Part shown: in pieces, positions 3,160 through 51,889 of the stretch
Layout of the letters: every line of letters starts with the position of its first letter
Numbering within the stretch: position 1 is the first letter of the stretch
Assembly (NCBI GenBank): GCA_963674595.2
Contig: CAXXFV010000026.1
Span: forward strand, 103,623-167,622
DNA from: a bacterium
Lineage (GTDB): Bacteria; Zhuqueibacterota; Zhuqueibacteria; Residuimicrobiales; Krinioviventaceae
DNA length: 64,000 nucleotides
Reading direction: 5' to 3'
Notes under the pieces: generated by a model
What the model was told of the DNA's origin: nothing
Seen by the model: only the letters and a program-made list of their open reading frames with translations
Database searches by the model: none
Translations under genes and position numbers: made by a program

Positions 3160-3431
3160 AAGACGGATTTAATTTCATGTCAAGGTTTTTATGAATATAA
3201 TTATTTTTGTCACTGAATATAATATTAAACGAGTTTAATAACGAACAAGAGGTTTAAAAAGTATTTTATATTAGATGAATAAACCAAAAGTCGGATTCAT
3301 TGTTTTTTAAGCCGGATAGTTACTTGCCGTATTTATGCTGCCGGCCGTGTGATGAGGGTAAAGGTTTAAAAAATGGCCAGACTTTTTATATATATTAATT
3401 ATTTTAACAATGTAAAATTGATAGTAAAAAT

Positions 3432-4007
3432 TTAAATGCTGTTTATAAGTCTTTCAACAGCCTCTATTAACAAGTTTTTTGGTGAATTTTTCAACAAATG
3501 AAGAGGAATTGCTGTTTGTATTGTATTAAATATATATCCCTGAACCAGGCAAAACCAGTTAAACATCAGCTCTTTTGCTGATTCCCTTTCCTTGGTCAGT
3601 TTGAAAAACAAGTCCTGAATCTGCTCAACATCCTTTATAATCTCATCATTTGTCATTGGGGTGTTATAGTTGACCATTAATTTATAGAGTGCATTATGTT
3701 CAAATGCAAAATCCCAATGATTTGCTGATAATTGTAATATAATTTTTTCAGGGTCAGGCTCTGTTTCCATTGCCAGTTTATAGGCTTTATGCAGCTCACG
3801 ATGCCCCGACATTGCCAATTCATTAAATAAATCTTGTTTGTTTTTAAAATATTCGTAAACTATTGGTGGGGTATAGTCAATTTTTTCGGCAATTTTACGG
3901 ATGGTAACGGCATTCCATCCTTCGGAAATCCCAATATTCAATGCGGTCTCCATTATTGCTTTCCGCATCTGTTCTTTTTCTTTTTGCCTTCGTTCAATAT
4001 GTCCCAT
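3432..4007 (-). CDS. TetR/AcrR family transcriptional regulator
   Basis: N-terminal HTH 'GWNAVTIRKIAEKIDYTPPIVYEYFKNKQDL'. Confidence 0.92.
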   Translation of the reverse strand: MGHIERRQKEKEQMRKAIMETALNIGISEGWNAVTIRKIAEKIDYTPPIVYEYFKNKQDLFNELAMSGHRELHKAYKLAMETEPDPEKIILQLSANHWDFAFEHNALYKLMVNYNTPMTNDEIIKDVEQIQDLFFKLTKERESAKELMFNWFCLVQGYIFNTIQTAIPLHLLKNSPKNLLIEAVERLINSI

Positions 4008-32801: not shown

Positions 32802-32829
32802 GTAGAGACGCAAAATTTTGCGTCTCTAC
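32802..32829. repeat. GTAG-family REP-like palindrome (perfect)
   Basis: GTAGAGACGCAAAATTTTGCGTCTCTAC. Confidence 0.8.
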
Positions 32830-32871: not shown

Positions 32872-33669
32872 TTATTCCCTAACCACCAACACGCCGCACA
32901 ATAACGGTTGTGAATTCGGGGCTTTGGCAGAGGCTTGCAGTTCGATTACAATATTGTCTGACGCGGTGATGTTTTTAAACTCTTTGATCAGTTCCGTGTC
33001 CAAGGTTTTGCTTTCGGCCAGAATGTCAAAATCCGTTAAAACTCTTTTACCTTGAATGGAGACGTTAAAAATCCGGTCGCCGGGTTTGAGTCCCTCCAGT
33101 TCGGCAAACACCAGCCGCACGGTGTACCGGCTGTCATCTGTTTCGTCACTGCTCAGGGGGATTTCCACACGGTGCACACCAATCACTGCGGAGGCGGCAA
33201 CCCAGGGGTATTTTTCACCTGTTATATTAAACGTGTGTCTGCGGATTTTGGCCGTATTTTCCGGCTGAATGGTGACACCGATATTGGGATTTTCTTCGGC
33301 CATAATGGGGTATTCCAGCCATAACACATTGTCCTGATCAATCCGGTCACCGGGCGCACCAAGGTTAATGCCCATTTTTTCAATAGGGGAGCCGTCCCAT
33401 TCCAGTTCACTGGTGGTCCAATATTCCAGACCCGGCATATATGTCAGGGCCAGAGAGGTCTGGTTGTGATAGGAGCACTGGCACGTCCGTGTATAGTCGG
33501 GTGCATTGAGAACACCGTCGGCGGCAATGAGGTTTGACGTACACCCGGACTTGAACCCGCCAAAATGGCCCGTACCACCGTCACCGTTCATGTCGGCAAA
33601 ACCGGCTGTGCCGGACCGAAAGGTGAGCAAGTTTTCACTGCCAATTCTATAATTACAGCTTGTGGCCCG
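32872..33669 (-). CDS. C-terminal part (Cys-motif propeller end plus malectin-like domain) of the frameshifted PQQ-propeller protein
   Basis: Frame is open up to ~33669 (RATSCNYRIGSENLLTFRSG..), with no RBS/ATG of its own; malectin-like 'YTVRLVFAELE..GDRIFNVSIQG..LTDFDI'. Confidence 0.8.
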   Translation of the reverse strand, partial: RATSCNYRIGSENLLTFRSGTAGFADMNGDGGTGHFGGFKSGCTSNLIAADGVLNAPDYTRTCQCSYHNQTSLALTYMPGLEYWTTSELEWDGSPIEKMGINLGAPGDRIDQDNVLWLEYPIMAEENPNIGVTIQPENTAKIRRHTFNITGEKYPWVAASAVIGVHRVEIPLSSDETDDSRYTVRLVFAELEGLKPGDRIFNVSIQGKRVLTDFDILAESKTLDTELIKEFKNITASDNIVIELQASAKAPNSQPLLCGVLVVRE

Positions 33670-36562
33670 TTATAAAGGCCCAGTCCATGTTTTGGCCGGT
33701 GAGCGGGTGTTTGCGCTGCAATGGTTCACCGGTCAGCAGGCTAAAAGCCCTTGTTTCGGACAAAATTTTGTCGGTGTGCAAAAGCGGCGGATTATCATAT
33801 TCTATGTTTTTGTCCCACACCACACTGCCGTCCCCGGCATTGTGAACAATCATACGCGTGCCTTCTTCGCCGTAAAGCATATCGTTGGAAGGCCGGGTGG
33901 CCTGCAGCAACAGATTATAATCTTTGGAATAGCTCAGCCAACTGCCGAAAACCGGTTCTTGTAGTTGCCATTTTATCTCCCCGGTTTCAATGTCCAGCGC
34001 CATCAGCCTGTTTTTATCGTGAAAATCCATGCCCCGGCGTTCCAGCTTTTTTGCATAATAGGGGGGAAGTTTGTCCATGCAATAGAGCGTGTTGTCGTGC
34101 ACGGTGATGGCATTGTGAATAAATCCTACGTGGGACACCATGGTCCATTTTACCTGTCCGGTATGCCGGTCCATAACCACCAGCATTTTACTGGACGTTT
34201 TGTCATAGTTGCTGAAATCGCGGACTTTGCGTGCTTTGGACGGCGACAATCCGTTTGCCTGGGTCAGTTCGGACTGGCCCGGCAGGTAATCGGAAAAGGG
34301 AATAAACCCGGCCCCGGCAATAAGGTTGTTACCCTGAACGCCGATATAGCCCCACTCGGCGCGGCTGCCGGTGGGAAGCGGCGGCAGTTGCAGCAAGTTT
34401 TGCTCTTCGCCGGTTTCTACGTCCAGGGTCAGGCACACCATGCCCTGAACAATGTAAACAAGGTCGGACGTCACGATAAAATTGGTGCCCCGTGCATTAG
34501 CGCCGGGGATATGTTCCTGATTATAAGCCTGGTTCAACGGTATGTCGCTAAAGGTTTCGTTAAAAAACATACCAAAAGTACCAAGACTGGTAAACTCTTT
34601 TTTCCATAAAACCCGTCCGGTGTAAACGTCGCGGGCGTTCATACAGTTCATGCCCTCAATAAACAGCCGGCCGTCCACCACCTGTTCCGGCGGTCCGTGC
34701 CCGTGTCTGGGTAAAACATCCAGGTTTGATGAACCGCCAAACCACAGGATTCCCAACGGTAGCTGCACAAGGTCATCATCGGATTTTAAGGTATTTTCTA
34801 TGTCCCCGTATTGATGGGTCCAGTTGGCTGCTCCTTTTAACTTGCCATCCCTGGAAATGACCAGTCCGTCGGCAAGAAAAGAGGCCTTTGCCTGGGGCAA
34901 GTTGTGATTTGCTGATATTGTTTTATTGCGTGTGTTCATCCATATCTTACCGCCATAGGGGCGGACAGATTGATATATTTTTTCCAGAAAATTTGATTTG
35001 AGAATATTTTCAGTTTGTTTGGCGTCCGGGAACAGCACCAGCGATGCAAAATAGGGGGCAAGCTCTACAGTTTGCGGACTGCCCGGAAGCAGATGCACCC
35101 TTTTGCCGTAAAGCCGCACAAGGTCCAGATTTTTGCGCCATTTTTCCAAGTCATTGGTGTTTTGTATATAGGCAATGATGTGCAGGTCTGAAGCCGCTAC
35201 CAGTGTTTCCAAAAATCCGGTGTTGGGCGGATTAAAGACCAGGGCATAACCCTCATTAATCTCCAGTGTGGATATGATTGTTTTGGCGGTTTTATTGTTT
35301 GTATCCGGAACGGTTTTGGGTGTTGCTAAAATATTGTTATGGCCGTTTTTTAAGGATGAACCAAATGCATAAATATCACCGTCCACAGAAACGGCAAAAA
35401 GCTGATTGTTGGCAGCCACCAGGCGTTCTATGTTTTTTATGGGATACTGCCAGATAATATCCTGATTTTTAATATCGATGGCTGTCAGTTGCTTTTTCCC
35501 GGCTGCATACAATCTGTTTCCTGATTGTATCAGGTCACCGGATGCGTCCACATCCAGGGACCAGTACAAACTATCGGGTTTGGATTTTGAATAAGCGGTT
35601 ATATTTTTCCCGGAAAAAATGTAAAACGAGTCGCTGATTACCGGTTGAATGCCCATCTTCATTTTTATACTTTTTCCGGTCTTCAAGTCATACATGTTGT
35701 AACATTTTTCACGGTCGTGATTAAAAAAGATATTGCCATCAAAAAAAATAAAAGAACCACCTGATTTATGGTTTTGGGCCGGGTTATAATAGATAAATTC
35801 GCCGGTTTTTCTGTCATAACAGGCAGGCACAGAGCGGCCGCCGGGAATGAGCAGAAAATCTTTGGTTGCCGTGAGCAAACCCTGCGGCGCCACACCGGCA
35901 AAGGACATGTGGTTGTGCGGTTGTTTTACCCAATCGGCGCCGCTGCCGTCGTTCAGCCAGACAATTGCGCCGGTGTTTGGATCCAGGGCATAGATAAACG
36001 TGCCCATAAACGGCCAGATACTGGCGGTAAAATACAGGGTGTCATCATAAATAACAACGCCGCCACGGACCGGCCATGTGGAAATAAACCGTTTGTTGCC
36101 GATTATTTTTCTGTCCGATGGACCGCCGCGCAATTTCCAAAGGAGTGAGCCGTCGGATGAATTGAGGCAGTATAAATAGCCGTCGTCACTGGTTACATAC
36201 ACATTGTTTTTATAACAGGCGGCGGGCAAGCGAACCGGGCCGTCCGTATAAAAGGCCCATTTTTCTTTGCCGGTTTTACAGTCGATGCAGACAAGCTTGT
36301 CGGTGTCGTTAAATCCCAGATATAAATTGCCGTCTTTAACCACCGGTTCAAAAACACGGTCATAGGGCATCAGGTCCTGATTCAGCGGATCGTCCCAGAC
36401 GGTTTCACGCGGTGAATAACTGCGCTGCCATTGCAGTTCCAAATTGTCCGGCAACTGGTCCGAACCGGCGCCGGTCCTGTAGGCATTGTTTCGCCACATG
36501 GGCCAGTCAGCCGAATATACATTCATATAACAGATTAATATTATCAAAAGATTTTTTTTCAT
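33653..36562 (-). CDS. PQQ-binding-like beta-propeller protein with internal methyltransferase-like domain (N-terminal part)
   Basis: Signal peptide, 'ADWPMWRNNAYRTG', repeated 'D..TG...W', 'WTHQYGD..NT..SDD', 'ARDVYTGRVLW'. Confidence 0.85.
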   Translation of the reverse strand: MKKNLLIILICYMNVYSADWPMWRNNAYRTGAGSDQLPDNLELQWQRSYSPRETVWDDPLNQDLMPYDRVFEPVVKDGNLYLGFNDTDKLVCIDCKTGKEKWAFYTDGPVRLPAACYKNNVYVTSDDGYLYCLNSSDGSLLWKLRGGPSDRKIIGNKRFISTWPVRGGVVIYDDTLYFTASIWPFMGTFIYALDPNTGAIVWLNDGSGADWVKQPHNHMSFAGVAPQGLLTATKDFLLIPGGRSVPACYDRKTGEFIYYNPAQNHKSGGSFIFFDGNIFFNHDREKCYNMYDLKTGKSIKMKMGIQPVISDSFYIFSGKNITAYSKSKPDSLYWSLDVDASGDLIQSGNRLYAAGKKQLTAIDIKNQDIIWQYPIKNIERLVAANNQLFAVSVDGDIYAFGSSLKNGHNNILATPKTVPDTNNKTAKTIISTLEINEGYALVFNPPNTGFLETLVAASDLHIIAYIQNTNDLEKWRKNLDLVRLYGKRVHLLPGSPQTVELAPYFASLVLFPDAKQTENILKSNFLEKIYQSVRPYGGKIWMNTRNKTISANHNLPQAKASFLADGLVISRDGKLKGAANWTHQYGDIENTLKSDDDLVQLPLGILWFGGSSNLDVLPRHGHGPPEQVVDGRLFIEGMNCMNARDVYTGRVLWKKEFTSLGTFGMFFNETFSDIPLNQAYNQEHIPGANARGTNFIVTSDLVYIVQGMVCLTLDVETGEEQNLLQLPPLPTGSRAEWGYIGVQGNNLIAGAGFIPFSDYLPGQSELTQANGLSPSKARKVRDFSNYDKTSSKMLVVMDRHTGQVKWTMVSHVGFIHNAITVHDNTLYCMDKLPPYYAKKLERRGMDFHDKNRLMALDIETGEIKWQLQEPVFGSWLSYSKDYNLLLQATRPSNDMLYGEEGTRMIVHNAGDGSVVWDKNIEYDNPPLLHTDKILSETRAFSLLTGEPLQRKHPLTGQNMDWAFITGHKL

Positions 36563-37227
36563 TCAGTCGGGTCCTTTTGCAGAATACCGTTTTTTAACTG
36601 ATATCGTTCAAGCGCTCTTTGTGCGACATGGGTATCATGCGTTACCATAAGAACGCTTTTATTTTTTTTAACATACTCGTCCAGAAAATTCAGGACCAGT
36701 TCCTTGTTTTTACCATCCAGGTTGCCTGTAATTTCATCGGCCAGCAGCACATCGGGACTGAACAAAACAGCGCGCGCCAGGGCAGTGCGTTGTTTTTCGC
36801 CCACGCTCAGTTCAGATGGCAGATGGTCTTCCCGGTGGTCTATTTGTAAATATGCCATCAATTCCCGCGCATTTTGTTCCGCCGAGTTTTCCTGCCGGGC
36901 CAGGGTCGGCGCTAAAATGTTTTCTTTGACTGTTAAATAGGGAATAAGATGGAACTGCTGAAAAACAAATCCTGTTTTTTGTGACCGCCACTGACTGCGC
37001 TGCTGGTGCGTTAACGTGTAAACATCCTGATTGTCCTGCACAACCGCGCCCGTGTTCGGATGCAGCAGTCCGCCGGCTGTTAACAGCAGTGTGGTTTTAC
37101 CGCAGCCGCTTTCACCCTGGATCGATGTTAAAATACCGGATTTCAGCGTGAGGCTCAGGTCCTTCAAAACAGGAATGTTTTGTTTATTTTTATAATATGA
37201 TTTGGATATGTTTTTCAATTCGAGCAT
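36559..37227 (-). CDS. ABC transporter ATP-binding protein (LolD/MacB-type)
   Basis: Walker A GESGCGKTT, 'GFVFQQFHL', signature LSVGEKQR, 'LLADEITGNLD', 'VTHD'. Confidence 0.93.
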   Translation of the reverse strand: MLELKNISKSYYKNKQNIPVLKDLSLTLKSGILTSIQGESGCGKTTLLLTAGGLLHPNTGAVVQDNQDVYTLTHQQRSQWRSQKTGFVFQQFHLIPYLTVKENILAPTLARQENSAEQNARELMAYLQIDHREDHLPSELSVGEKQRTALARAVLFSPDVLLADEITGNLDGKNKELVLNFLDEYVKKNKSVLMVTHDTHVAQRALERYQLKNGILQKDPTE

Positions 37228-38490
37228 CTAGTCTTCCTTTGCCAGAACAATCGCCGGGTCCTGACGCGATGCGCTGAAAGCAGGCGGCCAGGTGCTGATC
37301 AATGTTACCAGAATAGCCGTTGCCCATGAACCGGCCAGCAATCCAAAGGTGATATATTTAAACTTGAAATAGGAAGCTGTTGTGCAAACCAGAATACCGG
37401 CAACCGTTCCGACGGCCGCACCGGTCATGCATATTAAAAACGCCTTTGCCAGAAACAGCAAAATAATCTGCGCCGGACGAACTCCCACCGCCATTAAAAT
37501 GCCGATTTCGTTTTTGCGTTCATTGGCGTTTTGTGTAAACAGGATATACAGCCACACCATGCATAACAGCAGCACAAAGGGTATAAAAAGCGCTGCGAAT
37601 TTTTTCTGAATTTCAAGCTGCTGCTGTTTATTTTTCCGGTCTGCAAACAGGGCGTCGGTTGCCTCTTTAGATGCACGTTGCCGTGCATGGGCGCGGGTGA
37701 TGACCTTTTCCTGTTTTTCGATGATTTGCACATCCGGCAAAATCGCATTGATTTCTTTTCGAAGACTGTCCAGCGAGTTGCCCGCACATAAACATTTCAG
37801 GGCCAAAATAGCATTGATACGTCCGGGCTGGTTCAGCAGTTTTTGCGCCTGCTGTAAATCGATCCACAGGGAAATATCGTCGCGGCTGCCGCGTTCCGGG
37901 TAGCATGTTTCGATGACAAATGATTGGCCCAGCACCTTGATCGTGTCGCCGGCCTTGAGATCAAGCATTGTATGGATATCATACCCGACAACAACCCGGC
38001 CTTTGGGCACGGCCTGCATCATGGGTTCTTTGGGCGCACGATACAGCAACGGTACTTCGCCGCGAATGCCCACCAGCAAAACATGGCGTTTGGCTTCCGG
38101 CCATAATATCTTTCTCTCCAGACTGGGCAGTAAATGGCGAATGGACATAGAGGAAGAGGCTGCCAGTTTTTCCACATACTCTTCGGGCATTGTTTTAGCA
38201 GCAAAATTATTTGTATAAAAATCCGTCAGATTTTGGTCCTGCGGAAGAATCAACAGATTGAATCCCAGTTCCTTCATAATCTTGCGATAATCGTCCTTGA
38301 GCACATCCGTCCTTTTTTGTGTATCCTGAATTTTATCTTCCAGCACAAGCCGGATGTGATTTTCGTGACTGGTCAATAGTAAAATAGACCCCAGGAAAAC
38401 AGCTACCGCAATGGTCACCGAGGCAACTCCCAGAATAAAGTTTCGTTTTCGTTGTTTGAGTTCTTTGATTAAAAGTGTGAACAGGGTCAT
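37228..38490 (-). CDS. ABC transporter permease (FtsX/MacB-like)
   Basis: One N-terminal TM, large periplasmic loop, 'NANERKNEIGILMAVG', three C-terminal TMs, 'PPAFSASRQDPAIVL'. Confidence 0.9.
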   Translation of the reverse strand: MTLFTLLIKELKQRKRNFILGVASVTIAVAVFLGSILLLTSHENHIRLVLEDKIQDTQKRTDVLKDDYRKIMKELGFNLLILPQDQNLTDFYTNNFAAKTMPEEYVEKLAASSSMSIRHLLPSLERKILWPEAKRHVLLVGIRGEVPLLYRAPKEPMMQAVPKGRVVVGYDIHTMLDLKAGDTIKVLGQSFVIETCYPERGSRDDISLWIDLQQAQKLLNQPGRINAILALKCLCAGNSLDSLRKEINAILPDVQIIEKQEKVITRAHARQRASKEATDALFADRKNKQQQLEIQKKFAALFIPFVLLLCMVWLYILFTQNANERKNEIGILMAVGVRPAQIILLFLAKAFLICMTGAAVGTVAGILVCTTASYFKFKYITFGLLAGSWATAILVTLISTWPPAFSASRQDPAIVLAKED

Positions 38491-42496: not shown

Positions 42497-42675
42497 TAAA
42501 TTCTCCTTTCTAAACAGGTGAGTGAGTATAGGTGGGGTCAGTTTTCGTGATATTTTTAACAATAAAGTTAATAATATTTCCCAAAAAAACAACAAACGAA
42601 TTTATGGAGGAGGATTATTTGTAAAGGGCAGAGAAGGAAAGGATTAGTTTGATAGTTTGGTTCGTTGGTTATTTC

Positions 42676-42703
42676 GTAGAGACGCAAGATTTTGCGTCTC
42701 TAC
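42676..42703. repeat. GTAG-family REP-like palindrome
   Basis: GTAGAGACGCAAGATTTTGCGTCTCTAC, about 50 bp upstream of element copy 6. Confidence 0.8.
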
Positions 42704-43020: not shown

Positions 43021-43920
43021 ATGCCATCATTAGCTGAAGATTTGCAAACACAAAAATTTGAAATTGAAAGCTTTCGAATAGTTACTGAACGTGTATTAAA
43101 TTATATGCAGGAAATGATTGATGAAAAAATTGAATGCGGTGATTATTTTGTCTGTTCTTCGACAACTGCGGGAACGCGAAAGGCTATAAGGCCCTATAAA
43201 AAAAATCTGTTTATTAATAAATCCGATCAGTTTAACGATTTATATAATGAATTCATCAAAATTCTGAATAAAATTAAAAATGATAAACATGATTTTACCA
43301 AATCAGATTTTACAGTACTAGATAAGGTTATTTATACAACACAACAATCTATCGGAATTGGTCTTGATTTTTTAGTTGAACCTAATTCTGCCAGGAAACA
43401 TGTCGGAAACAGATTTGAGGAGTTAATTCGCACACTGTTATCAGAAATGAATATTCCCATTAAAAAGGTTGTTCTAAGTATACCGTATGAAACAGAGGAA
43501 GGTGAAAAATTTTATAAATGTGAAACTGATGTTATTATTTCTCCCTATGATTCTGTCCGTTCTGACCCAAAGAATATTGATCCGCATGAAATAGTGATTT
43601 CTCTAAAAACAACAACAAAAGATAGAATGCCCAAAATTTTTATTGATAAGATCCTGATGGAGAGATTCTTAGAACATCCGGTAAGGATGGTTGGTATCTC
43701 ACAGAATGACATTCAACGTAAAGAGGATAAAGGCGAAATTAAAATAAGCTATACTTTTGTATCAAATTTATTCATGGTCTATACAAAATTTCTAGCAGAA
43801 TTAGAAGGGTATTATTATTTAGATATTCCCAAAAGAGCTTTAGAATCACCATTTAATAGGCATATATTCCCATTCTCTAAATTCATTTTATCAGATATTT
43901 GGAACTTATTGCGTACGTAA
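43021..43920 (+). CDS. Putative Type II restriction endonuclease (PD-(D/E)XK fold)
   Basis: 'SARKHVGNRFEELI', 'ETDVII', 'VISLKTTTKDR' match a PD-(D/E)XK-like arrangement; convergent with and overlapping a DNA methyltransferase; AT-rich; AGGAG RBS. Confidence 0.75.
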   Translation: MPSLAEDLQTQKFEIESFRIVTERVLNYMQEMIDEKIECGDYFVCSSTTAGTRKAIRPYKKNLFINKSDQFNDLYNEFIKILNKIKNDKHDFTKSDFTVLDKVIYTTQQSIGIGLDFLVEPNSARKHVGNRFEELIRTLLSEMNIPIKKVVLSIPYETEEGEKFYKCETDVIISPYDSVRSDPKNIDPHEIVISLKTTTKDRMPKIFIDKILMERFLEHPVRMVGISQNDIQRKEDKGEIKISYTFVSNLFMVYTKFLAELEGYYYLDIPKRALESPFNRHIFPFSKFILSDIWNLLRT

Positions 43921-44973
43921 CTTTTTTCTGCGTGCAACAGCTTCATATTCATCTTTTGCTGATGCAATTCTGGAAATATTGTCTCTGTCAGATAACCGCT
44001 CTTTGATAATCTCGCAATAATCAAGATTAATTTCTGTTCCAAGCCAATTTCTATTGTATGCCTCTGATACTGCATAGGTCGTGCCTGATCCTCCGAATGG
44101 GTCTACAACAACACTCCCTTCGTAGGATGAAGCTAATACACATTTTCTAACCAATTCGATAGGTTTTTGTGTTTCATGTGGCGTCTTTTCCCACGCAGCG
44201 TTTGCTATTGTTGGGATTTCAAAAACGTCTTTTGGTTTTGCACCGTTAGGATGGGGTTCCCATATATATTTTTTACCATTTCCATTGTTATATTGCGAAG
44301 TTTCTGCCTGTGGTCTTTGGGGGTATTTAAGTGTATGTGCATTATAGGGGATTCTTACATCATCGATATTAAAAATAAACTTTTTACTTTTTCTGAAATG
44401 TAAAAGGCTTTCATGAGAACGCCCCCAATCATTTCCAAGATTTGCTTTATTACGGTAAAACCAGACCAACCACTTACAGCCCTTAAATAAATAGTTTGCT
44501 GCCCATTTGATGTCTGCTAATATTTCTGAAAAACCACAAATATATAAAGTTCCATGAGGTTTCAATACTCTATGGGCTTCCCTAATCCATTGCATGCACC
44601 ATTCTACATATTGTTTTTGAGATTGGAAAGAATCCCATTCCGCTTTTTTTATATTGTAAGGAGGATCTGCAAATATTAAATCTACAGAATCATCATCAAT
44701 AGATCTAAGAAATCTAAGTACATCAACATTATATAGTTTACCAAAATCAGTGCTAAAAATGGGTTGCCCTAATTTTACGTTTTTTCTTTCAGGTGTATAT
44801 TGGAGTTGTAATTCTTTTACAAAACTATTAACTTTATCAAGTGGATATACCCGATAATTATTAATAGGATTCCTCGATGATGGAAATTTCCCTGTTTTGT
44901 CCCAACGGCGAAGTGTTTCCTTGTTAACACCAATAATTTCTGCGGCATCGCTTATTGAGATAAATGAATTCAT
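43906..44973 (-). CDS. Site-specific N4/N6 DNA methyltransferase (beta class) with N-terminal MerR/Xis-like HTH
   Basis: HTH 'ISISDAAEIIGVNKETLRRWD..NNYRVY'; catalytic DPPY before 'HETQKP' and SAM-binding 'DPFGGSGTT'. Confidence 0.93.
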   Translation of the reverse strand: MNSFISISDAAEIIGVNKETLRRWDKTGKFPSSRNPINNYRVYPLDKVNSFVKELQLQYTPERKNVKLGQPIFSTDFGKLYNVDVLRFLRSIDDDSVDLIFADPPYNIKKAEWDSFQSQKQYVEWCMQWIREAHRVLKPHGTLYICGFSEILADIKWAANYLFKGCKWLVWFYRNKANLGNDWGRSHESLLHFRKSKKFIFNIDDVRIPYNAHTLKYPQRPQAETSQYNNGNGKKYIWEPHPNGAKPKDVFEIPTIANAAWEKTPHETQKPIELVRKCVLASSYEGSVVVDPFGGSGTTYAVSEAYNRNWLGTEINLDYCEIIKERLSDRDNISRIASAKDEYEAVARRKKLRTQ

Positions 44974-44980
44974 AGTAATC

Positions 44981-45059
44981 CTCTTTACAAGTCACTTAAA
45001 GATTAAACAACGTTATACAAGCTTATACAAATAATATAAAAAATTAATAAAGAATGCAA
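44981..45059 (-). promoter_or_regulatory. Methyltransferase promoter with 10-bp-phased direct repeats
   Basis: TTGCAT (45059-45054), 17 bp, TATTAT (45036-45031); plus-strand decamers GATTAAACAA / CGTTATACAA / GCTTATACAA (45001-45030) and CTCTTTACAA (44981-44990). Confidence 0.6.
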
Positions 45060-45268
45060 GAAATAATTTCAAGCTCAAGTATTACAAACGCATAAACGTA
45101 AACAATGTCTCACATCAAAGGGACTTAGCATTTTACGATCTATTTTTTTTATTCGTCCTGGGGTATGAATTCTTGTCTATTAAAAATATTTTTATATATT
45201 AAAATTTTAAATCGTTTATCGTTTAACAGTACGAATCCAACCTGAAACGCAGCGAGAAGGGATTATTT

Positions 45269-46684
45269 ATGAAAAATGCAATGATCGTGTTGATCAGTGC
45301 AGTTATGCTGGTTGCGGCATGCCGTGGTATAAAACCACAATCAATGTATCAACCTGATTTACTGATATCCACATCAGGCTCCTCTGCACATGCTGATAAT
45401 GTTATTCAGCCGCTCTATCAAACACTGTTACGATTTAAAAGAAATATCGGTCCCATTCCTGTTAACCAGACCGCTGATTTTTTTAAACAGTTCTCTCTTC
45501 AAAAAGGTGAGTCCGAACCCATGCTTTTTGCGGCAAATATGAACAATATAACGGGAGATAACAAGATGAACACGTTTTTCGACGAACACGACATCGTGAT
45601 TGGAGAAAAGTCTGAAACAGCCTTTATGAACAAATATGATATATATCAGGACGGCACAACACCGATGTATCGCGATGTGGACGGAAAACTTTGGGCAATG
45701 AGCGGACATTCGCATATGGGGCATATCGGTATGTTCTACGGTACACGTCTTGATGATTTAAAAGAGTTATACCCCATTTCCACAAATTTTTGCGTAGGAC
45801 ATGCCGATTATGCGTTTTCAGGTATACGTTATCCGGAAGGGATTAAACCTCGCGGCAGTATCTGGCCTTTTGGTTTATATATTAGTCCCAATACACACCG
45901 GTTTTTTTGCTTTTTTCATAATGAAACAGGCTGGAACGCAAAAGGAACCGGGTATATCGTTAAAGGCAAAGGCGACGGCGAACCGGATTTTCGTCATATT
46001 GGTCTTATGCATTCGGATGACGAAGGAAAAAACTGGACCTTCGACAGATGGGTGATTACGTCCGAAGAGGTTTGTTTCAGCGAATTGTATAATCCGGACG
46101 GGGAAAATGTTTTGGGACAAAAACAAGGACTGACGTGCCTTGGTGCCGGGGACTTTTCATTGTATGTTGAACCCGATGGGGAGTATATGTATCTTTTTTA
46201 CAACCTTTGCCGGGTCGAGTCTGAATCGTCAGTATGGAATAGTTGCGATACCTATGTGGCCCGGACCCGTAAACGTACGGACGGTGTGATGGGTGATTTT
46301 GTCAAGTATTTTAACGGCGAATTTTGCGAAGCCGGTAACCTCGGGAAAGAAACACCTATTGTATATAACGCCTGGCATCCGCGTGTCGTTTATTCTAAAA
46401 AATACGGACTGTATATAATGTCGTGTTCGCACATGACACCGGGTAAGAAAAAGCATGTTATCGACGACGTTATAGAAGTGCTGACCAGTGAGGACATGCT
46501 GCATTGGAGCGATCCCATACGAATCATGTACGAAGGTAAAGAGTTCGGTAACCACTATCAGGCTATTGTGCCGAACGATGATAAAAATCAGCCCAATATT
46601 TTGGAAGGTGATGAATTTTATATTTTGACCAACCACAACGGTACGGATGTTATGCGTTACGCTGCAAAGATCGTCAAAAAATAG
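45269..46684 (+). CDS. Chimeric lipoprotein: PrsA-derived N-terminus fused to a beta-propeller glycoside-hydrolase-like domain
   Basis: Residues ~1-95 align with the N-terminus of 47897..48922; internal GGGAG-N8-ATG at 45566; Asp-box 'SDDEGKNW', 'FFHNE', 'GAGDFS', 'TSEDMLHWSDP' suggest a GH43/32-like propeller. Confidence 0.75.
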   Translation: MKNAMIVLISAVMLVAACRGIKPQSMYQPDLLISTSGSSAHADNVIQPLYQTLLRFKRNIGPIPVNQTADFFKQFSLQKGESEPMLFAANMNNITGDNKMNTFFDEHDIVIGEKSETAFMNKYDIYQDGTTPMYRDVDGKLWAMSGHSHMGHIGMFYGTRLDDLKELYPISTNFCVGHADYAFSGIRYPEGIKPRGSIWPFGLYISPNTHRFFCFFHNETGWNAKGTGYIVKGKGDGEPDFRHIGLMHSDDEGKNWTFDRWVITSEEVCFSELYNPDGENVLGQKQGLTCLGAGDFSLYVEPDGEYMYLFYNLCRVESESSVWNSCDTYVARTRKRTDGVMGDFVKYFNGEFCEAGNLGKETPIVYNAWHPRVVYSKKYGLYIMSCSHMTPGKKKHVIDDVIEVLTSEDMLHWSDPIRIMYEGKEFGNHYQAIVPNDDKNQPNILEGDEFYILTNHNGTDVMRYAAKIVKK

Positions 46685-46765
46685 GGATTTAGCTTGTTGT
46701 ATTGATACAGGCAAAAATAGTTAATACCAGGTGCATGGAATTTTTTAAATTGTAAATGACAGTTC

Positions 46766-46793
46766 GTAGCGACGCAAGATTTTGCGTCGCTAC
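46766..46793. repeat. GTAG-family REP-like palindrome with compensatory changes
   Basis: GTAGCGACGCAAGATTTTGCGTCGCTAC: paired A>C / T>G substitutions relative to the 42676 copy keep the stem intact. Confidence 0.8.
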
Positions 46794-46930
46794 TTAGAAT
46801 TACAAGGAACAAATGTTAAATTGCCGGGTTCATAATGTTGTATACAGTCCCTGGTTATTCTCCTTGATTTTTGTGCAAATCTGTTATAAATTGAGGGTCT
46901 AAACTACCTTAAAATTAATGGAGTAAATAA

Positions 46931-47764
46931 ATGTCCGTTTCCAAAATTACCGATTTTAACAAACTCTGTATCCATACCATTACAACCAAACAATGGGACA
47001 TTGAAACAATTATAAACAAATATTCCGCAGCCGGTATTAAAGGCGTTTCAATTTGGCGGCAATGGCTGGAGGGAAGAAACCCCCAAAAAATTAAAAACAT
47101 GATGGCTGATAATGACCTGACCGCTGTTTCCCTGGTCCGTGGCGGATTTTTTCCTGCCCCGGATAAAGCCGGGCGACAGGCGGCAATTGATGAAAATAAA
47201 AAATGTGTTGACGAAGCGGCTGCTGTCGGCGCGCCCATGATTGTGCTCGTGTGCGGCGCTGTTCCGGGAATGTCTTTGACCGAAGCACGACAGCAGATTA
47301 AAGACGGCATTCAGGCGGTTTTGCCCTATGCAAAAGAAGCCGGTGTAAAACTGGCCATTGAGCCGCTGCACCCCATGTATGCCGGCGACCGTTCGGCTGT
47401 TAATACCATGAAACAGGCAAATGACATGTGTGATGCCATTGATGACACTCATATTGGTGTGGCCGTTGATGTTTATCATGTCTGGTGGGATTCCGAGTTG
47501 CAGCAGGAAATCAAACGCTGCGGCGAGTCCGGCAATCTTTTTGCGTTTCATATTTGCGACTGGCGCACCCCCACAGTGGACATGCTGAACGACCGTGGTT
47601 TAATGGGCGAAGGCTGCATCAACATTCCGGAAATTCGCGGCTGGGTGGAAGAGACCGGTTTTAACGGATTTAACGAAGTAGAAATATTTTCAAACCGGTG
47701 GTGGCAGGCAGACCCGGATGAGTTTTTAAAAGCCATTCAGGACGCCTATTTACAGCATTCATAA
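46931..47764 (+). CDS. Sugar phosphate isomerase/epimerase (xylose isomerase-like TIM barrel)
   Basis: 'LAIEPLHPMYA', 'VDVYHVWWD', 'FHICDW', 'DRGLMGEG', 'EVEIF'. Confidence 0.92.
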   Translation: MSVSKITDFNKLCIHTITTKQWDIETIINKYSAAGIKGVSIWRQWLEGRNPQKIKNMMADNDLTAVSLVRGGFFPAPDKAGRQAAIDENKKCVDEAAAVGAPMIVLVCGAVPGMSLTEARQQIKDGIQAVLPYAKEAGVKLAIEPLHPMYAGDRSAVNTMKQANDMCDAIDDTHIGVAVDVYHVWWDSELQQEIKRCGESGNLFAFHICDWRTPTVDMLNDRGLMGEGCINIPEIRGWVEETGFNGFNEVEIFSNRWWQADPDEFLKAIQDAYLQHS

Positions 47765-47896
47765 AGGCATATATAACTAATATCATAAAAAATATATTAG
47801 GTGTTTGTAAAATAAATTCATATATTACCCAGTTTTAAATCGTTTATCGTTCAACAGAGCGAATTAAACCTGAAATACAAAGAGAAAGGATCTCTT

Positions 47897-48922
47897 ATGA
47901 AAAATGCAATGATCGCGTTGATCAGTGCAGTCATGCTGATAGCGGCATGCAGTGATAAAAAACCACAGCCAAAGTATCAACCAGGAACACCGGAATATGC
48001 ATTTTTTGAAAAGGTCGCTGAAAAAGTTCCTGTACTCAATCCAAATGAAAATAATGTACTGGTCTCGACCTCAGAGTTTTCTGTGTATATCAGTGATGTC
48101 GCGCAGCCTCTGTATCAAACATTTAGACGATTTGAACAAAATATCGAAACCATTCCTGTAAACAATGTGACAGATTTTTTAAAACAATTTTCCACCCAAA
48201 AAGCAGAACGTGAATTGATGCTTCTTGCAGCAAATAAGAGCAACATAACCGTTCCTCAAGATTCTTTGACCAAACGTCTGGTAGAAATTTATACCCGTTT
48301 TGGCGGTGAGGATAAATTTGTTGAATATTTGGCAAAACAAGGTTTGGACCTCGAATTTGTTAAAAAAGATGTTAAAGAATCATCTATTATTCAAAAATAT
48401 CTTCAAGATGTTGTTTTTAATGTTGACGACAATATCTCTGATGAAGAATTAAAAGAAGCCTATGATAAAGACAAAACCGCATCGGTTCGCCATATCCTTT
48501 TCAAGACCCAGGGCAAATCAGACACTGAAAAAGAAGAAATTCGTCAAAAAGCTGAAAAAGTTTTAGCAGAAGCAAAAGATGGGAAAGACTTTGCCGGATT
48601 GGCTAAAGAGTATTCTGAAGATCCCGGCTCAAAAGACAATGGCGGTCTTTATGAAGATTTTGAAAGAGGAAGAATGGTTAAACCTTTTAACGATGCTTCT
48701 TTTTCTTTGCCGATTGGCGCTATCAGTGATTTGGTTGAAACTCAGTTTGGTTTTCACATTATAAAAATTATTGATCGTAAAAAAGAAACAAGACCTTTTG
48801 ACGAAGTTAAGGACGAATTGAAAAACAGTGTATCTGCTTTGAAAAAATCTGATGCCTATACCAACGCTGTGGAGTCGTTAAAAGAAGAGTATAAATATAC
48901 TGAACATTTTGAAAATCTCTAG
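47897..48922 (+). CDS. PpiC-type peptidyl-prolyl isomerase lipoprotein (PrsA/SurA-like)
   Basis: Lipobox IAAC; 'VRHILF', 'DFAGLAKEYSEDPGSKDNGG', 'MVKPFNDASFSL..ISDLVETQFGFHII'. Confidence 0.93.
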   Translation: MKNAMIALISAVMLIAACSDKKPQPKYQPGTPEYAFFEKVAEKVPVLNPNENNVLVSTSEFSVYISDVAQPLYQTFRRFEQNIETIPVNNVTDFLKQFSTQKAERELMLLAANKSNITVPQDSLTKRLVEIYTRFGGEDKFVEYLAKQGLDLEFVKKDVKESSIIQKYLQDVVFNVDDNISDEELKEAYDKDKTASVRHILFKTQGKSDTEKEEIRQKAEKVLAEAKDGKDFAGLAKEYSEDPGSKDNGGLYEDFERGRMVKPFNDASFSLPIGAISDLVETQFGFHIIKIIDRKKETRPFDEVKDELKNSVSALKKSDAYTNAVESLKEEYKYTEHFENL

Positions 48923-48927
48923 ATTTT

Positions 48928-48956
48928 AAGCCGGAATTTTTTCCGGCTTTTTTTTT
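48928..48956 (+). terminator. Intrinsic terminator
   Basis: AAGCCGGAA-TTTT-TTCCGGCTT followed by a T-run right after the PPIase stop. Confidence 0.85.
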
Positions 48957-49185
48957 ATAACCTGGTGGCCTGGTGCAAGTATAAAACATCTTGCACCAGG
49001 CCGAAATTTTTTATATCTTATATTACCTTCATTCGGAAGTGGGTTTCTGGAATACGGTTCCGAATTTCTCTCAAGACTATTTTCGTAAAACCCCACAAAC
49101 AGACTCGTCCTTCAGTGATTACCACATATTAAGTTTATGTCATGTTTTTTTTAATCAAATGTCAATTTTTAGAAAGGAGACAACG

Positions 49186-50705: not shown

Positions 50706-51596
50706 TTACTTTGGGTTGTTTTTTTGTTTATTTTGTAAAATTTCTGCATATTCTTCTGGAAAATGTTCCTGCATACAATCCGGACAAATGCCGTGACTAA
50801 AATGCGCATCGGAATGTTGTTTGACATATACATCAAGCTGTTCCCAGTAACCGTCGTCGTCACGGATTTTTTTACAAAAAGAACAAATCGGCAATATTCC
50901 CCTCAGGGTTTTTACTTCCGCCAACGTGTGTTCGAGTTTGGATACGGTTTCCTGCAAATTTTTGACAATCGGATTGGTTATTTTGAAAAACAAGCCTACA
51001 CCCAGTATTATGGCTATAATCGCAATAACAGAACTTGCAATCATTGCTTTAATAAACGGCGTTCTTATTTCCGAGAGATCAATTTTTGCAACAATGCCCA
51101 GGTTTAATACCTTAACCGGTTCATATGCTGCCAGCACTTTTTCACCCCGATAATCCATGCCGATAATGGTTCCGGATTTACCGGAAAGCGCCAGCCGCAT
51201 GGGTTCTGCCAAATCAGAGTCCCAGGGAACAGGTTTTGGTTCGTTAAGATCATAATGACGGTGACTGAGCAGAAAAACGATATGGTCACCTTTTTTTGAT
51301 GAAAGTGTAAATTCTCCGGTTTCGCCGAATCCTTTATATTTTGAATGGGCTTCTTTAATCTGGTCAAGTGTTGCCTGTCTCGACCCCAGCGGGTAATCGT
51401 TGCTGTACATTTTATCAAATCGTGCAACCGCCTCAATCAGCCGCGCCTGGCTTATGGCCACTTCACTTAACCGGGCCCTTTCTTCTTCAATTGCCGTTAT
51501 GTAAAGCGTTCGGATTGTGAAAGCTTCAACAGCTATAACGATTAACGACATTATTAAAATCAGTAATAAAATTCTTTTTTTTGGATTTGGGGCCAT
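50706..51596 (-). CDS. Membrane sensor: Cache-like domain plus C-terminal Cys/His 'LPICS.CKKIRDD.GYW..FSHGICP.C' domain
   Basis: TM - 'ALSGKSGTIIGMDYRGEKVLAAYEPV' - TM - short coiled coil - CxxC..H..CxxC domain; no kinase or cyclase domain. Confidence 0.8.
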   Translation of the reverse strand: MAPNPKKRILLLILIMSLIVIAVEAFTIRTLYITAIEEERARLSEVAISQARLIEAVARFDKMYSNDYPLGSRQATLDQIKEAHSKYKGFGETGEFTLSSKKGDHIVFLLSHRHYDLNEPKPVPWDSDLAEPMRLALSGKSGTIIGMDYRGEKVLAAYEPVKVLNLGIVAKIDLSEIRTPFIKAMIASSVIAIIAIILGVGLFFKITNPIVKNLQETVSKLEHTLAEVKTLRGILPICSFCKKIRDDDGYWEQLDVYVKQHSDAHFSHGICPDCMQEHFPEEYAEILQNKQKNNPK

Positions 51597-51889
51597 AACT
51601 TGCTTTACCATTATTAAATATGAACGATTTTATTTAATATTTGTAAAGGTTATACGTTTTAATATAAGATATAGTTGCCATGAAAACTGTATTTTTTTTA
51701 TAAAAATTCCGGTTTTGTCACATTTTTATAAAAATACAGCCGTGCACATTTTTATCATAAGCTATAATATAATTTACGTGTTATGGTAATAGTTTATTTT
51801 AAAATTTATTGAACCATTTAAAGCAGGGCCCTAAAAATTGTTTTTGTCCCGCTTTGCATGGTCTTGGCAGTACGCGGTAGAAAGCTTTT

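Follow-up and report, generated by a model that had tools for sequence, protein, structure and literature searches.

A chimeric gene joining the 5′ end of a PPIase lipoprotein gene to a probably carbohydrate-active beta-propeller enzyme

Introduction

In Salmonella, Anderson and Roth reportedly observed in the 1970s that the join points of tandem duplications can fuse genes to foreign promoters while the parent genes stay intact. Those fusions came from laboratory selection and represent transcriptional capture, whereas in the gene described here, ORF A, an export signal was captured. To our knowledge, old and fixed natural join-point chimeras, with the parent still adjacent and the junction still readable, seem to be described less often.

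For Staphylococcus aureus, nusG'-'sigH and rplK'-'sigH have been shown experimentally to be chimeras of short-junction tandem duplications, in which the 5′ end of the donor is found as direct repeats flanking the recipient, as at the ORF A locus (PMC3486894). Those chimeras are characterised as unstable, reversible and laboratory-selected, with the upstream intact copy kept and expression alone changed (PMC3486894). The ORF A fusion, in contrast, is old, occurs in several samples, lacks an upstream copy and has added a signal for export and lipidation.

In the Elp lipoproteins of Borrelia burgdorferi, the upstream DNA is reportedly common to the genes as well, and the mature parts are said to be otherwise unrelated (Akins et al. 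1999). These proteins carry OspE/F-like leader peptides and resemble ORF A in that a lipoprotein leader is common to proteins that fall into different subfamilies by their mature parts (PMC12242104). The Elp proteins are multi-copy surface-protein paralogues of plasmids or prophages, whereas at ORF A the capture occurred once, with a housekeeping chaperone of the chromosome as the source and a mostly leaderless enzyme family as the recipient.

The event at ORF A is of a known kind, and the locus is a good natural example of it. Here we describe this locus in a 64,000-nucleotide stretch of bacterial DNA (the window). Sequence comparison makes it probable that ORF A, as a fixed chimeric gene, routes an acquired enzyme into the lipoprotein pathway. 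The locus shows, nearly base by base, how a presumably horizontally acquired, cytoplasmic-type enzyme can obtain its promoter-proximal region, start site and lipoprotein signal from a housekeeping gene in a single step. It illustrates a route by which bacteria may assemble a new exported protein from existing parts.

The PPIase 5′ end is present in two copies

ORF A (45269..46684, plus strand) encodes 471 aa. Its downstream neighbour on the same strand (47897..48922) encodes a parvulin-type peptidyl-prolyl isomerase (PPIase) lipoprotein of 341 aa (Rotamase_3, E 7.3e-35). The Pfam families Rotamase, Rotamase_2 and Rotamase_3 scored above their cut-offs, and the SurA_N_3 match was weak (18.6 bits, under the cut-off of 27.2). 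Because the NCBIfam equivalogs for PrsA and SurA matched solely below their cut-offs, we call this protein PrsA/SurA-like rather than an equivalog.

The 5′ part of ORF A (copy A) is a diverged duplicate of the 5′ end of this PPIase gene (copy B). Aligned by MAFFT, positions 45205-45552 and 47833-48249 share ~79% column identity with a single 69-nt in-frame gap in copy A, and BLASTP of the two N-terminal modules gave 60/118 identities (E 5e-32) with a gap of 23 residues. The 64 nt preceding the two ATGs are identical at 51 positions. An ungapped direct repeat of 181 nt (45174-45354 and 47802-47982, 80% identity, spacing 2628) places the beginning of the homology ~95 nt upstream of the ATG. This duplication is far beyond chance. 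The initial annotation had recognised 45190-45552 as a diverged copy of 47820-48250; the alignments and both reading frames agree with this, except that the repeat starts slightly further left, at 45174 and 47802. In the genome to which the window belongs, the module occurs twice and the enzyme body once.

Copy A comprises upstream DNA (45174..45268, +), forming a 5′ UTR with the Shine-Dalgarno (SD) sequence GAAGGGA and a probable promoter, the captured lipoprotein signal peptide MKNAMIVLISAVMLVAAC (45269..45322, +; codons 1-18, with the lipobox V-A-A-C and Cys18), and the remaining captured N-module (45323..45552, +; codons 19-95), which corresponds to PPIase residues 19-118. On the parental side, the counterparts are the PPIase 5′ UTR and probable promoter (47802..47896, +) and residues 1-118 (47897-48250). 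The 69-nt gap sits after codon 29 (after 45355). Since the 23 residues in question, like the lipobox leader, are present in 11/11 PPIase orthologues examined, the in-frame difference of ~23 codons noted initially can be located as a deletion in copy A.

A full-length PPIase orthologue was found in 41/41 related genomes, some of which possess a second, diverged paralogue (37% identity). The enzyme, on the other hand, was found in 0/18 genomes of the same family and in 4/42 other genomes of the order, all of one genus (58% identity). From these distributions, the direction of copying was from the PPIase to the enzyme, with the PPIase gene as parent and the enzyme gene as recipient. Copy A is also nearest to the PPIase of its own genome (60/99 identical positions, compared with ≤28/99 for orthologues). 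ORF A itself is not a PPIase because it shares residues 1-95 only and lacks a PpiC-type rotamase domain (no Pfam match at E ≤ 0.01). What it has in common with PrsA/SurA-type PPIases is the leader and the beginning of their chaperone-like N-terminal region, a piece that is truncated and internally deleted in ORF A.

The homology to the PPIase ends at 45552, just 5′ of gGGAGAtaacaagATG with the ATG at 45566, in line with the earlier observation that it stops right before a GGGAG ribosome-binding site and this ATG. The junction or spacer (45553..45565, +) is the enzyme's native SD region, GGGAGATAACAAG, which is read through in frame as G-D-N-K. As to microhomology at the join, the hexamer CAAGAT occurs 9 nt (copy A) or 7 nt (copy B) beyond the end of the homology, out of register, and the original join is blurred by divergence.

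The enzyme belongs to a mostly leaderless beta-propeller family

Between the native start M100 and the stop codon (45566..46684, +), the enzyme body is predicted to form a five-bladed beta-propeller of the glycoside-hydrolase type. At E ≤ 0.01, it could be assigned neither to a Pfam nor to an NCBIfam family. The AlphaFold2 model, with pLDDT values mostly >90, aligned in VIA-align with propellers of GH183, GH43, GH117, GH137, GH159 and GH32 at Z 21.5-16 over 240-298 residues. The best match was 8hhv (Z 21.5, rmsd 3.5 Å over 279 residues), and members of GH43 and GH117 reached Z 19-20. Foldseek returned E values of about 1e-8 with TM scores of just 0.3-0.55. The enzyme thus has its fold in common with the GH43, GH117, GH183 EndoMA1, GH137, GH159 and GH32/68 propellers, at a sequence identity of 10-15% only.

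In an alignment of 49 sequences of the enzyme family, D128, D136, E219 and D295 are invariant. The fusion partners seen in distant relatives are carbohydrate-binding modules of the F5/8-type-C and ricin-B kinds and pieces of SASA esterase and GH127. The family is probably carbohydrate-active, and the substrate of the ORF A enzyme would be a carbohydrate. We flag this five-bladed propeller family as a subject for functional study; annotators should be aware that residues 1-99 of ORF A are uninformative on its function.

We found 460 homologues of the enzyme. Among the matches listed for query residues 100-471, 115 of the 119 non-self proteins are 356-398 aa long. A Met equivalent to M100 is the start in 8/10 homologue sequences examined and at nearly all of 34 metagenomic loci, and leaders of >25 aa were seen in no more than 4 of the other 48 aligned sequences. 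Leaderless homologues have GGAG-type SDs 4-9 nt 5′ of their ATG. The named homologues among the matches listed are from Clostridia (62-70% identity, above the 58% within the order), whereas the host is a diderm, which, together with the patchy distribution in the order, suggests that the host lineage acquired the enzyme horizontally. Both expectations of the initial annotation, that the closest homologues start near M100 and that they come from other taxa, were borne out by these data, and its signal-less, beta-propeller hydrolase-like ORF corresponds to the leaderless family and the fold match. It had also proposed that its idea would fall if homologues across distant taxa all carried the same N-terminus; the PPIase module was absent from all homologues among the matches listed and from the 34 metagenomic loci. 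Its wording of a gene birth by 5′-end capture holds for the capture, but gene birth is an overstatement because ORF A is a chimeric fusion of two pre-existing genes.

The captured module is under relaxed but non-neutral evolution

The two copies are separated by a dS of about 0.8-1.0, for which reason we call the fusion old, and a dN of 0.295. For the shared segment, a calculation that the initial annotation had proposed gave a dN/dS of 0.31 (95% bootstrap interval 0.18-0.52). As dN reached half of dS in just 177 of 5000 bootstraps, copy A is unlikely to be neutral, even when all replacements are assigned to it. Among 39 polarisable replacements, 21 fell on copy A and 6 on the parent, with 12 ties, and the helix motif AE[KR].LL, conserved among the orthologues, is disrupted to GESEPML in copy A. 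The module beyond the lipobox is consequently under relaxed constraint; by these comparisons, it has evolved faster than its parent, yet not neutrally. Codons 19-95 were modeled by AlphaFold at pLDDT 42-64 and probably form a flexible tether.

The frame and the lipobox had been noted to survive many substitutions, and ORF A is indeed open and its lipobox intact. In simulations, the open frame was retained in 27% of copies at 38 random substitutions and in 9.6% at 76, so that frame survival by itself is weak evidence for constraint.

The same fusion was found in contigs of 4/4 other studies compared, 1-6% diverged. The population counts are from the variants listed, mainly those shared between runs. 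All 11 indels listed are intergenic: ORF A, at 1416 nt, has none of them, whereas the upstream spacer, at 295 nt, has six (Fisher p 2.5e-5). Among the variants listed, shared ones are denser in the spacer (18/280) than in the module (7/297) or the enzyme body (7/319; p 0.02). The variants listed for the module are 3 nonsynonymous and 4 synonymous ones.

The leader is a predicted lipoprotein signal

Lipoprotein signals of the PROSITE pattern have a positively charged n-region, followed by a hydrophobic h-region and then by a lipobox whose terminal Cys falls at position 15-35. The segment MKNAMIVLISAVMLVAAC fits this pattern, as do the parent PPIase and 11/11 of its orthologues, and it differs from the parental signal peptide at 4/54 nt and in 2 conservative residues. 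The genome encodes Lgt (PF01790, E 7.6e-55) and LspA (PF01252, E 3.7e-39), both above cut-offs, as well as Omp85 proteins. ORF A is therefore a putative lipoprotein precursor, predicted to be a substrate of signal peptidase II and to be lipidated at Cys18.

Leaders occur elsewhere in the enzyme family. Members G033/G039 and L060 have unrelated lipobox leaders, and P0002/P0003 have a different, hydrophobic leader that falls outside the lipobox pattern. The enzyme tree requires the leader state to change three times, and the family has acquired unrelated leaders at least twice besides the one of ORF A. This recurrence suggests that export of the enzyme is useful and makes the family a small natural experiment in convergent relocalisation. 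Since ORF A is sister to P0002/P0003 (support 98/80), its ancestor may already have been exported. Both these relatives, whose leaders are fully integrated, have lost the Met at the native start (...GRFFDKH in P0002 and ...GKFFDKH in P0003), a hint for the reading with two starts discussed below.

Proposed origin of the fusion

The locus is arranged as P5'::E - T - intact P, in which the PPIase 5′ end (P5') forms direct repeats, E is the enzyme gene and T a xylose-isomerase-like TIM-barrel gene between the repeat copies (46931..47764, +; Pfam AP_endonuc_2, E 2.7e-41). We propose that a PPIase segment made up of ~95 nt of 5′-flanking DNA and the first 118 codons, which include the start codon and the signal peptide, was duplicated 2.6 kb upstream and joined in frame to a leaderless five-bladed propeller gene that the lineage had acquired horizontally, immediately 5′ of the enzyme's own SD and ATG. 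This may have happened by a short-junction tandem duplication of [E-T-P5'] and then loss of the redundant upstream E-T copy. The later deletion is needed in this model because there is only one copy of the enzyme body in the genome; no second, intact upstream copy of the enzyme gene and no trace of a lost E-T copy were found there. Campbell-type integration could have led to the same geometry. As in chimeras from short-junction tandem duplications, the downstream neighbour served as donor of upstream DNA, SD, ATG and first codons, which stand in frame with the enzyme, and it was itself kept intact.

PPIase-derived signals would then direct transcription and translation of the enzyme, Sec would export it, Lgt and LspA would bring about its lipidation at Cys18, and a chaperone-domain remnant of ~80 residues, now a linker, would tether it to a membrane of the cell envelope. 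The upstream DNA of copy A is the sole DNA able to drive ORF A between it and a divergently transcribed methylase gene. A sigma-70-like match lies at 45173-45200; because such matches are no commoner than in shuffles, the promoter is a putative one.

Alternative explanations

Because the window comes from a 37-contig draft, an assembly chimera or a collapsed repeat was considered. It is so improbable that we rejected it: the two copies are only ~79% identical, and contigs of four other studies run from the upstream DNA through module and junction into the enzyme body, bridging the junction with 13-68 differences each. It is unlikely that, instead of arising at a duplication join point, copy A began as part of a complete second PPIase gene in tandem, with the enzyme gene later inserted in place of the 3′ two-thirds. 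The same final arrangement would be expected, and the second paralogues (37% identity) show that PPIase duplication happens in the order. However, copy A matches copy B at 60/99 positions and the second paralogues at ≤26/99, no rotamase remnant was found after ORF A, and the enzyme gene would have to have been inserted in frame and precisely at its SD. We give similarly little credence to a common ancestor of ORF A and P0002/P0003 that was already secreted and whose leader was swapped for the PPIase-derived one. Their sister relationship, the N-terminal hydrophobic leaders of P0002 and P0003 and the short GKG.GEPDFRH loop variant common to all three would agree with this. Yet their leaders lack homology (best E 0.38-0.5), those of P0002/P0003 do not fit the lipobox pattern, and ORF A has kept both a GGAG-type SD and a Met exactly where leaderless members of the family start, a site at which P0002/P0003 lack the Met, making a leaderless ancestor the simplest account.

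We regard it as very unlikely that expression alone was captured, that is, that only a promoter and a leader RNA were supplied, with a cytoplasmic enzyme from 45566 as the functional product and the upstream frame incidental. Such a product would explain why the native SD and ATG are fully kept at the normal start of a family that is mostly leaderless, and why in four other samples they are kept or the SD is even strengthened (45553 G>A, giving AGGAG), and it would agree with the relaxed, low-confidence module past the signal peptide and with the chance survival of an open frame in 10-27% of simulations. But the SD of the upstream ATG is nearly identical to that of the parent and nothing stops a ribosome before M100, so any transcript including this ATG would yield the fusion protein. 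Moreover, the lipobox is intact, the dN/dS of the module and its ratio of 3 nonsynonymous to 4 synonymous variants among those listed speak against an incidental frame, and its variant density equals that of the enzyme body, with no indels listed compared with six in the neighbouring spacer.

A reading in which both translation starts are under selection, one yielding the envelope-tethered lipoprotein and the other a cytoplasmic form from M100, is possible though doubtful. It would be consistent with the native SD and ATG having been retained exactly at the family start over the divergence since the duplication, and with the sole variant in this SD/ATG among those listed across the four other samples being one that strengthens the SD (GGGAG to AGGAG). 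If this reading is true, the acquired enzyme would act on its substrate in the cytoplasm as well as outside the cell.

Neighbouring elements

A hairpin with a 12-bp stem (-21.1 kcal/mol) lies 3′ of ORF A at 46763..46793 (+). It is one copy of a REP-like palindrome that is also found at 42673-42703, at 32802-32829 and on one other contig. The hairpin failed the T-run rule of the terminator scan and is a possible transcription stop.

The TIM-barrel gene between the repeats was not linked to the enzyme or the PPIase in other genomes, and there was no synteny with other genera from which the ancestral order could be rebuilt. It is present in 25/40 other related genomes at 53-69% identity and, judged by sequence, is native to the lineage.

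The 5′ end of ORF A is a diverged copy of a PPIase gene 5′ end

ORF A (45269..46684; 471 aa) lies on the same strand as a 341-aa ORF (47897..48922) 2.6 kb away. PpiC-type rotamase domains (Rotamase_3, E 7.3e-35), an N-terminal region weakly resembling SurA_N and matches to the PrsA and SurA models, both below cut-off, led us to classify the latter as a PrsA/SurA-like PPIase. The initial annotation had described the start of ORF A as a diverged copy of the upstream DNA, lipoprotein signal and N-terminus of this gene, and the alignments agree with it. In MAFFT, the two 5′ ends with their upstream DNA share ~79% column identity with a single in-frame gap of 69 nt in copy A, the ~23-codon deletion of the annotation, and BLASTP aligns copy A to the PPIase with 60/118 identities (E 5e-32). 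The 64 nt preceding both ATGs are the same at 51 positions, and an ungapped repeat of 181 nt (80%; 45174-45354 versus 47802-47982) has its left edge ~95 nt upstream of the ATG. PPIase homology ends at 45552 and is followed at once by gGGAGAtaacaagATG, whose ATG (45566) is Met100 of ORF A; this is the RBS and start before which homology had been said to stop. We refer to residues 1–99 as the module and to residues 100–471 as the enzyme body. Throughout the genome (6.6 Mb, 37 contigs searched), the module occurs in only two copies and the enzyme body in one. A scan of genome contigs with the PPIase returned distant rotamase matches only.

The module was copied within this lineage

A PPIase orthologue, aligned over essentially its whole length at 40–50% identity, was present in 41/41 genomes searched in the family and order. 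Both the lipobox leader and the 23-residue stretch absent from copy A occur in all 11 orthologues extracted, so it was copy A that lost sequence. The module is identical to the PPIase of its own genome at 60/99 positions. Its identities with the orthologues, and with a second PPIase paralogue that some relatives have, do not exceed 28/99; the module was therefore copied within this lineage, from this PPIase. When the 39 columns that differ between the copies were polarised by the orthologues, 21 supported the PPIase state and 6 the copy A state, with 12 ties; copy A has thus changed about three times as fast. The signal-peptide codons (45269-45322 versus 47897-47950) differ at only 4/54 nt, with a dS of 0.20 against about 1.0 in codons 19–95, and codon 15 in four other samples is the parental codon. 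This low divergence suggests local gene conversion between the copies or synonymous-site constraint near the start.

Most homologues of the enzyme body begin at the Met100 equivalent

The enzyme body matched no Pfam or NCBIfam family and has 460 homologues at E ≤ 0.001. Among the non-self homologues listed, 115/119 are 356–398 aa long, and a Met aligned to M100 starts eight of the ten inspected (MxxFFxxHxIxIGE...); the named ones listed are Clostridia MAG proteins. The closest homologues had been expected to start near this residue and to come from other taxa, as those listed mostly do. The module was covered by none of the 150 listed matches from a search of 1.84 billion representatives, bar one spurious repetitive protein, and by none of 34 metagenomic loci with the enzyme, in which almost all copies begin at the M100 equivalent. 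An N-terminus common to all homologues, which would have spoken against capture, is thus not seen among these matches and loci. Searched against a set of 5.8 billion proteins, residues 1–99 returned only the cluster of ORF A itself (three members), a search of limited sensitivity for so short a module, as it also missed the PPIase of the window. Apparent N-modules in loci L064, L053, L047, L066 and L070, where tblastn matches seemed to precede residue 100, are explained by non-coding frames upstream being read through. The contigs of P0002 and P0003, the closest homologous proteins, were not retrieved in the metagenome scan. One metagenomic contig (L042, 1154-3520) carries two tandem leaderless enzyme genes with frames of 382 and 405 aa, 59% and 56% identical to ORF A.

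Leaderless homologues have a GGAG-type Shine-Dalgarno sequence 4–9 nt before the ATG (e.g. aaggagattctcATG, taggagatggttATG), and ORF A has gggagataacaagATG at the equivalent place. This places the join no more than one or two bases from the native translation-initiation region of the enzyme, which in ORF A is translated in frame as G-D-N-K-M. Two isoforms may arise from the two starts of ORF A, as initially proposed.

In an AlphaFold2 model (49-sequence alignment), pLDDT is mostly above 90 for residues 100–471 and 42–64 for residues 1–99. D128, D136, E219 and D295 do not vary in that alignment. The enzyme body is predicted to fold as a five-bladed β-propeller, in line with the propeller hydrolase-like ORF first annotated. 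VIA-align matched it to the GH183 endo-arabinanase EndoMA1 (Z 21.5, rmsd 3.5 Å, 279 residues) and to GH43 exo-galactanases, GH117, GH137 and GH159 (Z 19–20), all at just 10–15% identity; Foldseek agreed with the propeller fold, though with low TM-scores. Distant relatives are fused to F5/8-type-C or ricin-B carbohydrate-binding modules, a SASA esterase, a GH127 fragment or a 3-keto-disaccharide hydrolase domain. Given these fusions and the propeller matches, the predicted enzyme is likely carbohydrate-active.

The enzyme is patchily distributed

Searches found the enzyme in none of 18 same-family genomes and in 4/42 other genomes of the order. These four belong to a single genus within a sister family; identity is 58%, and one of the copies is broken. 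The body of ORF A is 62–70% identical to Clostridia-labelled proteins, and in a maximum-likelihood tree the same-order copies fall outside a well-supported clade of ORF A and leaderless forms. Patchiness, identities and tree together support a probable horizontal acquisition of the enzyme. Between the two repeats lies a TIM-barrel gene (46931..47764; AP_endonuc_2), which occurs in 25/40 other genomes at 53–69% identity and, in contrast to the enzyme, is native. In the other-genus regions and other enzyme loci compared, it showed no linkage to the enzyme or the PPIase, and window neighbours accompany the enzyme in 0/37 other loci. Orthologue regions of 20 kb in other genera, six for the PPIase and five for the TIM-barrel gene, have no neighbour in common with the window, save a 53–56-residue match of one downstream ORF.

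A decayed enzyme homologue lies in the same-order genome G040 (contig C1, about 106500-106900; L029/L031/L082); what is left are fragments in open frames of 143 and 73 aa, which align with residues 110–182 and 401–465. In sister-family genomes, a lipoprotein-type homologue is flanked by two genes (L027, 73-1182 on the minus strand and 2620-3741; likewise L028). By eye from the translations, one flanking protein is secreted with Asp-box-like repeats (SxDxGxTW) and the other is a 373-aa secreted protein with parallel β-helix-like repeats, a hint of a small extracellular glycan-degrading cluster.

Leader, upstream DNA and export

Codons 1–18 of ORF A (MKNAMIVLISAVMLVAAC) obey the PROSITE lipobox rule, with two conservative residue differences from the parent. 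The frame is also intact; both had been noted to survive the substitutions. The host genome encodes Lgt and LspA and has twelve Omp85-family matches, which marks the host as a diderm with a lipoprotein pathway. Past Cys18, what the module retains of the PPIase N-terminal chaperone-like region is truncated and has an internal deletion, and AE[KR].LL, a motif kept in orthologues, now reads GESEPML; we read this part as a predicted flexible tether.

Upstream lies a divergently transcribed DNA methylase gene (43906..44973, minus strand; N6/N4 methylase with an N-terminal MerR-type HTH), so the promoter of ORF A must sit in the 295-nt spacer, whose proximal ~95 nt come from the PPIase gene. There is a sigma-70-like match at 45173-45200, but shuffled sequences yield matches of this type no less often; the promoter and terminator scans, whose counts did not exceed the shuffle means, lend no weight either way. 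Promoter capture from the PPIase gene is plausible.

Unrelated lipobox leaders occur on the enzyme in genomes G033 and G039, in metagenomic locus L060 and, judged by frame length, in genome G041, and P0002/P0003 have a different, hydrophobic leader. None of these leaders shows homology to the PPIase module (best E 0.38–0.5, hydrophobic cores only). A careful tree needs three changes in leader presence, from which we conclude that selection has favoured export of the enzyme more than once. P0002/P0003 are the sister group of ORF A (support 98/80), and their own leader would suit an ancestor of ORF A that was already led and then exchanged its leader for the PPIase-derived one. We consider such a swap improbable, because ORF A alone has kept a Met and a Shine-Dalgarno sequence at the native start, most simply derived from a leaderless ancestor.

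The fusion persists and appears constrained

Part of the stretch is present in at least 13 sequencing runs from 8 studies, with no RNA run among those listed. Contigs of four runs from four different studies were placed on 44900-49000, and in each run one contig spans the methylase end, upstream DNA, module and junction into the enzyme body (to 45907, 47395, 45916 and 46316), with 50, 68, 61 and 13 differences from the window. This rules out an assembly artefact; the chimera is real and persists in strains differing by 1–6%.

All 11 listed indels are intergenic. Six fall within the spacer (295 nt), and ORF A is free of them over its 1416 nt (Fisher p 2.5e-5; p 0.015 when the spacer is compared with just the 297 nt of the module). 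For listed variants common to several runs, the counts are 18 in the spacer (280 nt), 7 in the module (297 nt; p 0.02 for density against the spacer) and 7 in the adjoining 319 nt of the body, so the module is as quiet as the enzyme; these counts come from listed rows, which appear to be complete only where the deepest contig has the variant too. The seven listed module variants comprise three nonsynonymous (V15I, I63M, A69T), two of which (V15I and A69T) return to the parental state, and four synonymous ones; under neutrality the ratio would be about 3.6:1 (binomial p 0.045). The dN/dS proposed as a check on the duplicated segment is 0.31 (dN 0.24, dS 0.77; bootstrap 95% interval 0.18–0.52). 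Since dN reaches dS/2 in only 177/5000 bootstraps, neutral drift of copy A is unlikely, even with all replacements charged to that copy and a clock assumed. Frame survival alone is weak evidence and does not reject neutrality, as 27% of simulated frames stayed open with 38 random substitutions and 9.6% with 76.

A chimeric gene of a known kind

Capture of the PPIase 5′ end by the enzyme is supported by the repeat, the orthologues in 41/41 genomes and the module-less homologues, and the initial reading as "gene birth by 5′-end capture" stands. ORF A is best described as a chimeric gene that would relocalise a probably acquired enzyme, rather than as a gene born from nothing. The present order (PPIase 5′ part fused to the enzyme gene, TIM-barrel gene, PPIase gene) amounts to direct repeats of the donor 5′ end around the enzyme and TIM-barrel genes. 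Tandem duplication of the segment from the enzyme gene through the PPIase 5′ part would yield this order at its join point, and Campbell-type integration would give it equally. A later deletion of the upstream intact enzyme copy would have to be assumed, because the genome has none; the low-GC restriction-modification pair on that side may mark it.

The event is of a known kind; this instance is unusually legible, with population data behind it. In S. aureus, sigH is joined in frame to the downstream nusG (at codon 50) or to rplK (at codon 42) by short-junction tandem duplications of 1.2–1.9 kb, and the chimeras are driven by the promoter, RBS and start codon of the downstream gene while the parental genes stay intact (PMC3486894). 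There too, the donor is a downstream gene whose 5′ end is joined in frame to the recipient and which is itself kept; the ORF A locus differs in lacking an upstream intact enzyme copy. Borrelia Elp proteins are lipoproteins with an "OspE/F-like leader peptide", the closest known natural case of one lipoprotein leader common to proteins of different subfamilies (PMC12242104).

Other elements in the window

Directly upstream of ORF A, the low-GC pair (43021-44973; GC 0.333 versus 0.407 for the window) consists of the methylase gene and an overlapping, convergent 299-aa ORF (43021..43920) of no family, probably a restriction enzyme; the pair is likely a mobile restriction-modification insertion. 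A 31-nt REP-like palindrome (12-bp stem, -21.1 kcal/mol) is found at 42673-42703, 46763-46793 and 32802-32829 and once on genome contig C19. The arms of these copies differ by compensatory changes, and 31-mers at high depth in one run point to a repeated element. Two copies enclose a 4.09-kb block of the restriction-modification genes and ORF A. Their flanks show no similarity past the 31-nt core, so these hairpins are not long flanking repeats of an island.

Further upstream, the genes at 33653-38490 may form an envelope-related transporter cluster. They encode an ABC ATPase whose best match is LolD, although its 187 bits fall short of the 307.75 cut-off, an FtsX-type permease that matches LolC/E weakly, and a PQQ/BamB-like propeller protein of 969 aa. 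On the minus strand, 50706-51611 encodes a 301-aa membrane protein of no family with a Cys-rich C-terminal motif (…CSFCKKIRDDDGYWEQ…HGICPDC…), and two related genomes have this motif again, at 59–62% identity over 53–56 residues, with the TIM-barrel orthologue 6–7 kb away.
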